A stretch of 64,000 bases of DNA from the NCBI RefSeq assembly GCF_056712565.1, contig NZ_CM160072.1; one strand, 5' to 3'. Of the stretch, positions 38,198 to 38,386 are shown in pieces. Made by a program: the position numbers and the translations under genes. Each line of letters begins with the position of its first letter. Within the stretch, counting starts at the first letter, position 1. Under the pieces are notes generated by a model, which worked only from the letters and a program-made list of their open reading frames with translations, was not told where the DNA came from and ran no database searches.

Positions 38198-38199
38198 AG

Positions 38200-38262
38200 C
38201 GTTGCCGGATGACGCGTCAGGCGCGTGAATGCCTGATGCGTCAGCACAATCACATCAGGCTG
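38200..38262. repeat. REP-like palindromic element
   Basis: gccggatgacgcgtcaggcgcgtgaatgcctgatgcgtcag palindromic units immediately after osmC. Confidence 0.45.
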
Positions 38263-38386
38263 AGAAGGGATTGTTGTGACATGGCTATGCGTTGTCGTTG
38301 TCCAACTAAACGTAGCGGAAATCACAGTATTTAAGTGACAGTGTCACGTTAAATAAAAACCCGCGAGTGCGGGCGAGAGGAATTTA

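Follow-up and report, generated by a model that had tools for sequence, protein, structure and literature searches.

The 189 bp that separate osmC from dosP in the 64-kb stretch of DNA analysed here (the window) very probably mark the place where the ddpXABCDF operon was secondarily lost. DdpX is a VanX-type D-Ala-D-Ala dipeptidase, homologous to VanX, and DdpABCDF form an ABC importer of D,D-dipeptides. The system has reportedly been proposed to salvage cell-wall dipeptide in starvation, and stationary phase and nitrogen limitation are reported to induce the operon. The absence of ddp and the direct juxtaposition of osmC and dosP, as described in the initial annotation, are borne out by the window: the two genes are convergent, with stop codons at 38197 and 38387 and 189 bp (38198-38386) between them. 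The gene order is adhP, maeA, sra and bdm (all on the minus strand), osmC (plus), dosP (minus), a dosC fragment, digH/yddW and gadC. Over its first 59 kb the window is nearly identical to the genome of ATCC 11775 (NZ_CP033092.2), with ∼10 single-base differences; this strain is the E. coli type strain and a member of phylogroup B2. The features of the locus are as follows.

37766-38197, plus strand: osmC, intact, 143 aa, peroxiredoxin OsmC (TIGR03562, 200.7 bits), annotated as osmC in ATCC 11775
38198-38241, plus strand: osmC 3' flank, common to K-12 (up to position 2843 of the K-12 locus, L002)
38210-38222/38231-38243: hairpin with 13-nt arms that are 92% complementary; K-12 has the same hairpin
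38231-38260 and 38240-38280: hairpins involving the ddpF relic
38243-38303, minus strand: ddpF relic, 61 nt from mid-gene, aligning in the same orientation with K-12 L002 3285-3346
38304-38307: AACT, unassignable bases that fit neither side
38308-38386, minus strand: dosP 3' flank, shared with K-12 (L002 8998-9076)
38330-38352: palindrome in the dosP 3' flank
38359-38377, minus strand: dosP intrinsic terminator (terminator-like site)
38387-40810, minus strand: dosP, intact, O2-sensing c-di-GMP phosphodiesterase (DosP equivalog NF008467, 1637 bits)
40811-41021, minus strand: dosC (dgcO) remnant, comprising the last ∼55 codons (GGDEF C-terminus) and a 44-nt mid-gene island (40975-41018)
41353-42672, minus strand: digH/yddW

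The annotated dosP encodes 799 aa and ends at 40786, the open reading frame reaching an upstream ATG at 40810; over residues 1-799 the protein displays 98.6% amino acid identity with K-12 DosP.

The osmC-dosP spacer and its ddpF relic

In K-12 DH1 the locus reads osmC, ddpF, ddpD, ddpC, ddpB, ddpA, ddpX, dosP, dosC and digH. The K-12 order given in the initial annotation, with six ddp genes between osmC and dosP, was thus right, and K-12 does carry ddp in this slot. Pairwise alignment sets 6,154 bp of K-12 DNA against 66 bp of the window, the extra K-12 sequence consisting of ddpFDCBAX and the promoter region. The left breakpoint lies at window position 38241/38242 (L002 2843/2844), 12 nt before the ddpF stop codon, and the right breakpoint at 38307/38308 (L002 8997/8998), 179 bp upstream of the ddpX start; both outer flanks are ∼97% identical to K-12. 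Compared with the K-12 operon (b1483-b1488), the window has lost all six genes and their promoter region; what is left in the same osmC-dosP slot is a 61-nt stretch of ddpF that is still oriented as in K-12 but, being frameshifted, has no capacity to encode a functional product. No intact ddpX (M15 D-Ala-D-Ala dipeptidase) was found at the locus or, in the window search, the genome counts and the sampled junction genomes described below, elsewhere, and of the ddpABCDF transporter genes nothing beyond the frameshifted ddpF fragment is left downstream of osmC. A clean deletion, one of the two explanations initially offered for the short spacer, is therefore not an accurate description, as an internal ddpF relic is flanked by at least two deletions.

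The relic is 79-81% identical to ddpF. Its K-12 counterpart encodes SGGQRQRIAIARALSSQPDVIVLD, which extends from the ABC signature through Walker B, while the relic itself translates as (V)GQRQRIAMSQQSLLSLM followed by a stop codon; GQRQRIA is kept, the frame is then lost by a 1-nt deletion and the stop follows. Since the signature motif is common to ABC ATPases, the specificity of the relic was put to the test by sensitive blastn of a 71-nt junction-specific segment against 5,426 complete E. coli genomes (28 Gb). The segment matched exactly one place in each ddp-positive genome (∼4,285 genomes) at 79-81% identity, and every sampled match of this kind fell in ddpF, whether the annotation gave the gene name or named the product as an ABC ATP-binding protein, and none in a paralogue. 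The segment corresponds to unannotated intergenic sequence, with at least 95.8% identity, in 1,115 genomes. Among 82 retrieved loci, multi-locus matches of the relic were only to ddpF orthologues, and these included ddpF of a divergent Escherichia (L003) and of Citrobacter at the orthologous position. An origin from another ABC ATPase paralogue was ruled out, given that the genome-wide blastn matches are in ddpF only. Judged by these matches, the 71-nt segment is a relic of ddpF, and residual homology specific to the lost genes is present in its original orientation and position. If this junction formed at a CCGGA microhomology, the four bases AACT that adjoin the relic may be what remains, in degenerate form, of GCCG on its ddpF side.

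The end-points of the deletion spare both the osmC hairpin, which is likely the osmC transcript-end structure, and the dosP terminator, and each of the convergent genes keeps the structure that follows it. The initial annotation described the spacer as consisting largely of REP-like palindromes. Hairpins, a palindrome and a terminator are indeed housed in the 189 bp, but no true REP is among them. The lone REP-like head/tail match, GCCTGATG...ATCAGGC at 38231-38260, spans the deletion junction and is chimeric, the head being derived from the osmC flank and the tail from ddpF coding sequence plus a private G to A change. This match resembles REP/BIME elements in its Z-type REP-like head (GCCTGATGCG), ATCAGGC tail and 8-bp stem, and, like REPs, it is placed between convergent genes, where such elements often occur. 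Unlike members of the REP family, its loop differs from the REP consensus, and it is single-copy in the window. The osmC-proximal hairpin is likewise single-copy within the 64 kb, and does not belong to a dispersed repeat at that scale. Canonical Y-type REPs were located elsewhere in the window, at 17826 and 33073, by a variable-gap pattern search. A REP element in the spacer was ruled out on the grounds that 38231-38260 is chimeric across the junction and unrepeated in the window; the match is evidently a look-alike made by the junction rather than a REP family member. With respect to structured RNA, no Rfam family was detected near the junction, a chance miRNA-level match (E=0.76) lying elsewhere.

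Polarity and distribution of the ddp scar

The polarity of the event was addressed through gene order in outgroups, using eighty osmC loci from species-representative genomes, among the matches listed, mostly of other genera. The arrangement osmC (plus) followed by ddpF-D-C-B-A-X (minus) is intact, among these matches, in Enterobacter and related genomes (L025, L028-L031, L036 and L038), in some twelve Citrobacter species and in the ∼10% divergent Escherichia L003. The same order is found in a metagenome-assembled genome (L049). Within E. coli, IAI39, presumably of phylogroup F, has a full ddp operon together with an intact dosC. As a separate observation, Citrobacter (L005-L019) and Escherichia L003 (10467-17212) carry an extra 6.8-kb cluster between osmC and ddpF that is absent from K-12 and from the window; it encodes a 3-hydroxybutyrate dehydrogenase, a GntP-type permease, a 3-hydroxyacyl-CoA dehydrogenase, a thiolase, CoA-transferase subunits A and B and a LysR regulator.

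These data bear on the second explanation initially offered, in which the osmC-dosP junction is original and ddpXABCDF was inserted in an ancestor of the non-B2 phylogroups. Such a history would fit the shortness of the junction, which has no IS or integrase scar, and the early-branching position often given to B2 in E. coli. It is refuted, however, by the ddpF-specific fragment that lies in the gap in the orientation of ddpF, and by the osmC-ddpFDCBAX synteny of Enterobacter, Citrobacter and the divergent Escherichia. The G+C content of the ddp block is also ordinary (52.8%, compared with 49.6% for the K-12 locus), with no sign of foreign origin, and IAI39 has the operon. The combination of relic, outgroup synteny, ordinary G+C and the IAI39 operon excludes ancestral absence as a credible reading, and its probability is considered very small.

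The contiguous osmC-dosP junction, the hallmark of the ddp scar, is present in 1,116 of the 5,426 complete E. coli genomes (∼20%), showing that it is not an assembly accident. The ddp block is present in 4,294 of the same genomes, and the two sets are complementary: 5,411 genomes possess the locus, and together the sets account for 5,410 of these. The possibility that ddp was moved to another locus or to a plasmid, rather than lost, is rendered vanishingly improbable by these counts in combination with further searches. Sensitive blastn detected ddpX in only 4,282 of the 5,426 genomes, so that ddpX DNA is absent from ∼1,144, a number with room for all 1,116 junction genomes. A chimeric query that joins the junction to K-12 ddpA/ddpX matched a single place in 13 of 13 sampled junction genomes, compared with two places in ddp-positive genomes. 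The 64-kb window contains no Ddp homologue, only a weak similarity to the ABC ATPase YddA (yddA). In favour of relocation, four plasmid places in the whole collection match ddp DNA, among them a ddpX piece of 342 bp in NZ_CP159531.1. The counts and the chimeric-query test nevertheless rule out ddp elsewhere in the genome, a concern raised alongside the original observation and one that finds no support in the window search, the ddpX counts or the 13 sampled genomes. The plasmid piece is of some interest in itself: in NZ_CP159531.1 (an E. coli plasmid of 115 kb) positions 57772-58113 match the K-12 ddp block at its upstream end with 99.7% identity, cover the 5' end of ddpX and its upstream region, and are annotated as an M15 family metallopeptidase.

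ATCC 11775, to which the window is so similar, is one carrier of the scar, and Nissle 1917, also of phylogroup B2, is another. Genomes that carry ddp include K-12, BL21, O157:H7, an ST69 strain and IAI39. Judged by these named strains, the scar carriers, including the window strain, may be essentially of the B2 lineage; at least two carriers (GPEC1185 and Z1323CEC0015) have flanks that are not B2-like.

Decay of the relic, the dosC remnant and recombinant carriers

The relic differs from ddpF of K-12 and IAI39 at 13 of 62 aligned positions (21%). At ten of the 62 positions the relic stands alone against a state common to K-12, IAI39 and the outgroup L003; these private changes comprise nine substitutions, seven of which are GC to AT, and one 1-nt deletion. 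A GC to AT bias is the pattern expected of unconstrained E. coli DNA. At the three remaining sites the relic shares the state of L003 and not that of K-12 and IAI39. For comparison, the window departs from K-12 at 8.4% of four-fold degenerate sites (osmC, dosP, digH and gadC) and from IAI39 at 4.4% (osmC, digH and gadC); dosP was left out of the comparisons with IAI39 and GPEC1185 on account of indels or a frameshift. By this measure the relic is ∼3-4-fold more diverged than predicted if ddp was lost on the B2 stem and the remnant then drifted neutrally, a value that, at 62 nt, serves as a flag and not as a date. The excess may reflect an inactivation of ddpF well ahead of the last deletions, a ddp-less allele that predates B2, a neutral rate faster than four-fold sites suggest, or small-sample noise in 62 nt.

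The excess divergence raises the question of whether the scar is a native product of B2. The ddp-less allele could be much older than B2, or derive from another Escherichia lineage, and have entered B2 by homologous recombination to persist as a long-lived polymorphism. The ∼3-4-fold excess over neutral expectation, with ten private changes in 62 nt, is consistent with such an import, as are the L003 state at three sites at which K-12 and IAI39 have another, and the fact that the window, GPEC1185 and the K-12-like Z1323CEC0015 share an identical scar although their flanking haplotypes are very different. However, the flanks of the window are ordinary for B2 in comparison with K-12 (∼97% identity), the private changes of the relic represent the AT-biased decay expected in place, and 62 nt is too short for dating. 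The other ddp-less Escherichia seen (L004) has an omptin-like pseudogene in this position and not the same scar. On balance an imported scar is unlikely. A related and equally doubtful proposal is that the ddp-less allele has persisted since before B2 as an old polymorphism, either balanced or long-lived, which would account for the excess divergence of the relic; that it was spread between E. coli backgrounds by recombination, with tracts stopping within a few bases of the heterology; and that its joint loss with dosC reflects selection rather than neutral decay. If this were true, it would imply selection in extraintestinal or host-adapted lineages that removed D-Ala-D-Ala salvage and rewired O2-dependent c-di-GMP signalling. 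Loss of ddp followed by decay in place is the preferred reading.

The L004 locus mentioned above belongs to E69 (CP089930.1), a divergent 'E. coli' in which no ddp genes lie between osmC and dosP (5399-6717). The gap of ∼1.3 kb contains a disrupted omptin-like ORF (OmpT/Pla family, by eye), and DosP displays 93% amino acid identity with the K-12 protein.

A second scar lies 2.4 kb from the first. Relative to K-12, dosC has suffered two deletions, L002 11666-12195 (530 bp) and 12240-12928 (689 bp), the second of which takes the start codon and 45 bp upstream; dosP is intact. The remnant is annotated as a partial pseudogene in ATCC 11775. DosC has been described as frequently absent from E. coli isolates (PMC5635171). 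The dosC double-deletion scar was identified, with a 201-bp query, in 1,049 of the 5,426 genomes. The ddp scar resembles it in that two deletions surround a small island, and resembles lineage-specific scars of enterobacteria more generally in the loss of a conditional or accessory function, the short relic, the AT-biased decay and the clade-wide distribution. The two scars differ in that the ddp relic is far more decayed, at 79% identity to K-12 compared with 97.7% for the dosC island, and in that the ddp scar is slightly commoner (1,116 genomes). In addition, dosC is intact in GPEC1185, which carries the ddp scar. From the lower identity of the relic, the wider distribution of the ddp scar and the GPEC1185 arrangement, the loss of ddp appears to be the older event, with the loss of dosC nested within it.

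The two carriers with unusual flanks are informative about how the scar came to lie on different backgrounds. In GPEC1185 (L088, NZ_CM142790.1; junction at 8499-8687) the relic is 100% identical to that of the window. Its osmC, maeA and digH are 2.4-3.0% different from those of the window, which is as far as K-12 is, and similarity to the window is confined to 38230-40975 (relic plus dosP), where there are 14 differences, the mosaic edge falling at the scar. Z1323CEC0015 (L089, NZ_CP148423.1, 6800-9670) has both the ddp and the dosC scars, with a relic identical to that of the window, in K-12-like surroundings: its dosP is 99% identical to that of K-12, and its OsmC, DigH, GadC and GadB proteins are identical to their K-12 counterparts. 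The nearest K-12-type SNP on the right of the scar in this genome is only 3 nt away, and on the left such SNPs set in within 42 nt. An identical ddp scar is thus found on at least three different flanking haplotypes. A single origin is indicated by a relic that is at least 95.8% identical across 1,115 genomes and 100% identical in GPEC1185 and Z1323CEC0015, where the flanks are 2-3% diverged. These alignments show flanks that were exchanged by homologous recombination as far as the edge of the heterology, demonstrating that the scar is decoupled from them. In the simplest reading, ddp-positive donors would have overwritten the flanks of a ddp-less recipient, with tracts ending at the heterology; the opposite direction, in which the scar was imported into the K-12-like and GPEC1185 backgrounds, is possible. 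The mosaic carriers provide a clear, small example of an indel as the end-point of homologous-recombination tracts.

Proposed history and significance of the loss

The history shown by these data starts from an ancestor arranged as in K-12, with osmC converging on ddpFDCBAX and dosP following on the strand of ddp. At least two deletions then removed ∼441 bp at the 3' end of ddpF and ∼5.66 kb extending from mid-ddpF to a point 179 bp upstream of ddpX, leaving an internal 61-nt ddpF fragment that subsequently decayed, mostly through GC to AT changes and a frameshift. The scar arose once, in keeping with the same private substitutions wherever it was examined, and has reached its present share of about one-fifth of complete E. 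coli genomes; its presence on other haplotypes shows exchange of flanks by homologous recombination up to the heterology. With regard to the deletions themselves, the junction sequences contain no IS, integrase or tRNA sequences and no long direct repeats at the boundaries; as no mobile-element scar is present, illegitimate recombination is the probable cause. A search for simple microhomology at the junctions yielded only weak or imperfect candidates, CCGGA at junction B and, close to the second junction in dosC, CAAAAT; a simple microhomology product would read differently from the junctions observed.

That B2 genomes such as CFT073 lack ddp can be seen in any genome comparison made since 2002. 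In the literature searched, no explicit statement of this absence, or of a link between ddp and phylogroup, was found. The loss of ddp is an ordinary, long-visible and lineage-specific polymorphism in gene content; what is added here is its polarity (loss), the relic, its frequency, the nesting with the dosC loss and the recombinant carriers. Its significance is mostly one of bookkeeping: the lack of ddp in B2-type E. coli, a group that takes in Nissle 1917, the type strain and probably the majority of ExPEC lineages, is not ancestral but a derived loss with a diagnostic 61-nt scar, the sequence of which offers a simple marker for the ddp-less allele. Strains without ddp would be unable to import or cleave D-Ala-D-Ala via Ddp, and metabolic models of scar strains should omit these two steps. 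The loss of dosC with retention of dosP would, in the same strains, leave the DosC/DosP oxygen-sensing c-di-GMP pair unbalanced.

Several other rearrangements were observed at or near this locus. Partial ddp operons occur in 23 genomes. WS0115A (L090, NZ_CP035882.1, 3023-4598) displays an independent deletion in which osmC through the 3' half of ddpA is gone, and ddpX with the 5' part of ddpA is kept, adjoining bdm. IAI39 (L087, 40476-42874) shows a third form of erosion of the ddp-dosCP region, with dosP annotated as frameshifted beside an intact ddp operon and an intact dosC. Upstream of osmC, the bdm-osmC intergenic region that includes the osmC promoter (37538-37694) is hypervariable, with ∼21 differences per 160 bp in comparison with GPEC1185; it is also rich in differences from K-12 and IAI39, compared with ∼2-3% in the adjacent genes. 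Further afield, a small island at ∼11060-15900 of the window (2517837-2522682 in the ATCC 11775 record), between yddH and yncG, encodes a T6SS PAAR protein, a Vgr protein, an M35 peptidase and a hypothetical protein, and contains a fragment of an ISAs1 transposase; the adjoining yncG is frameshifted.
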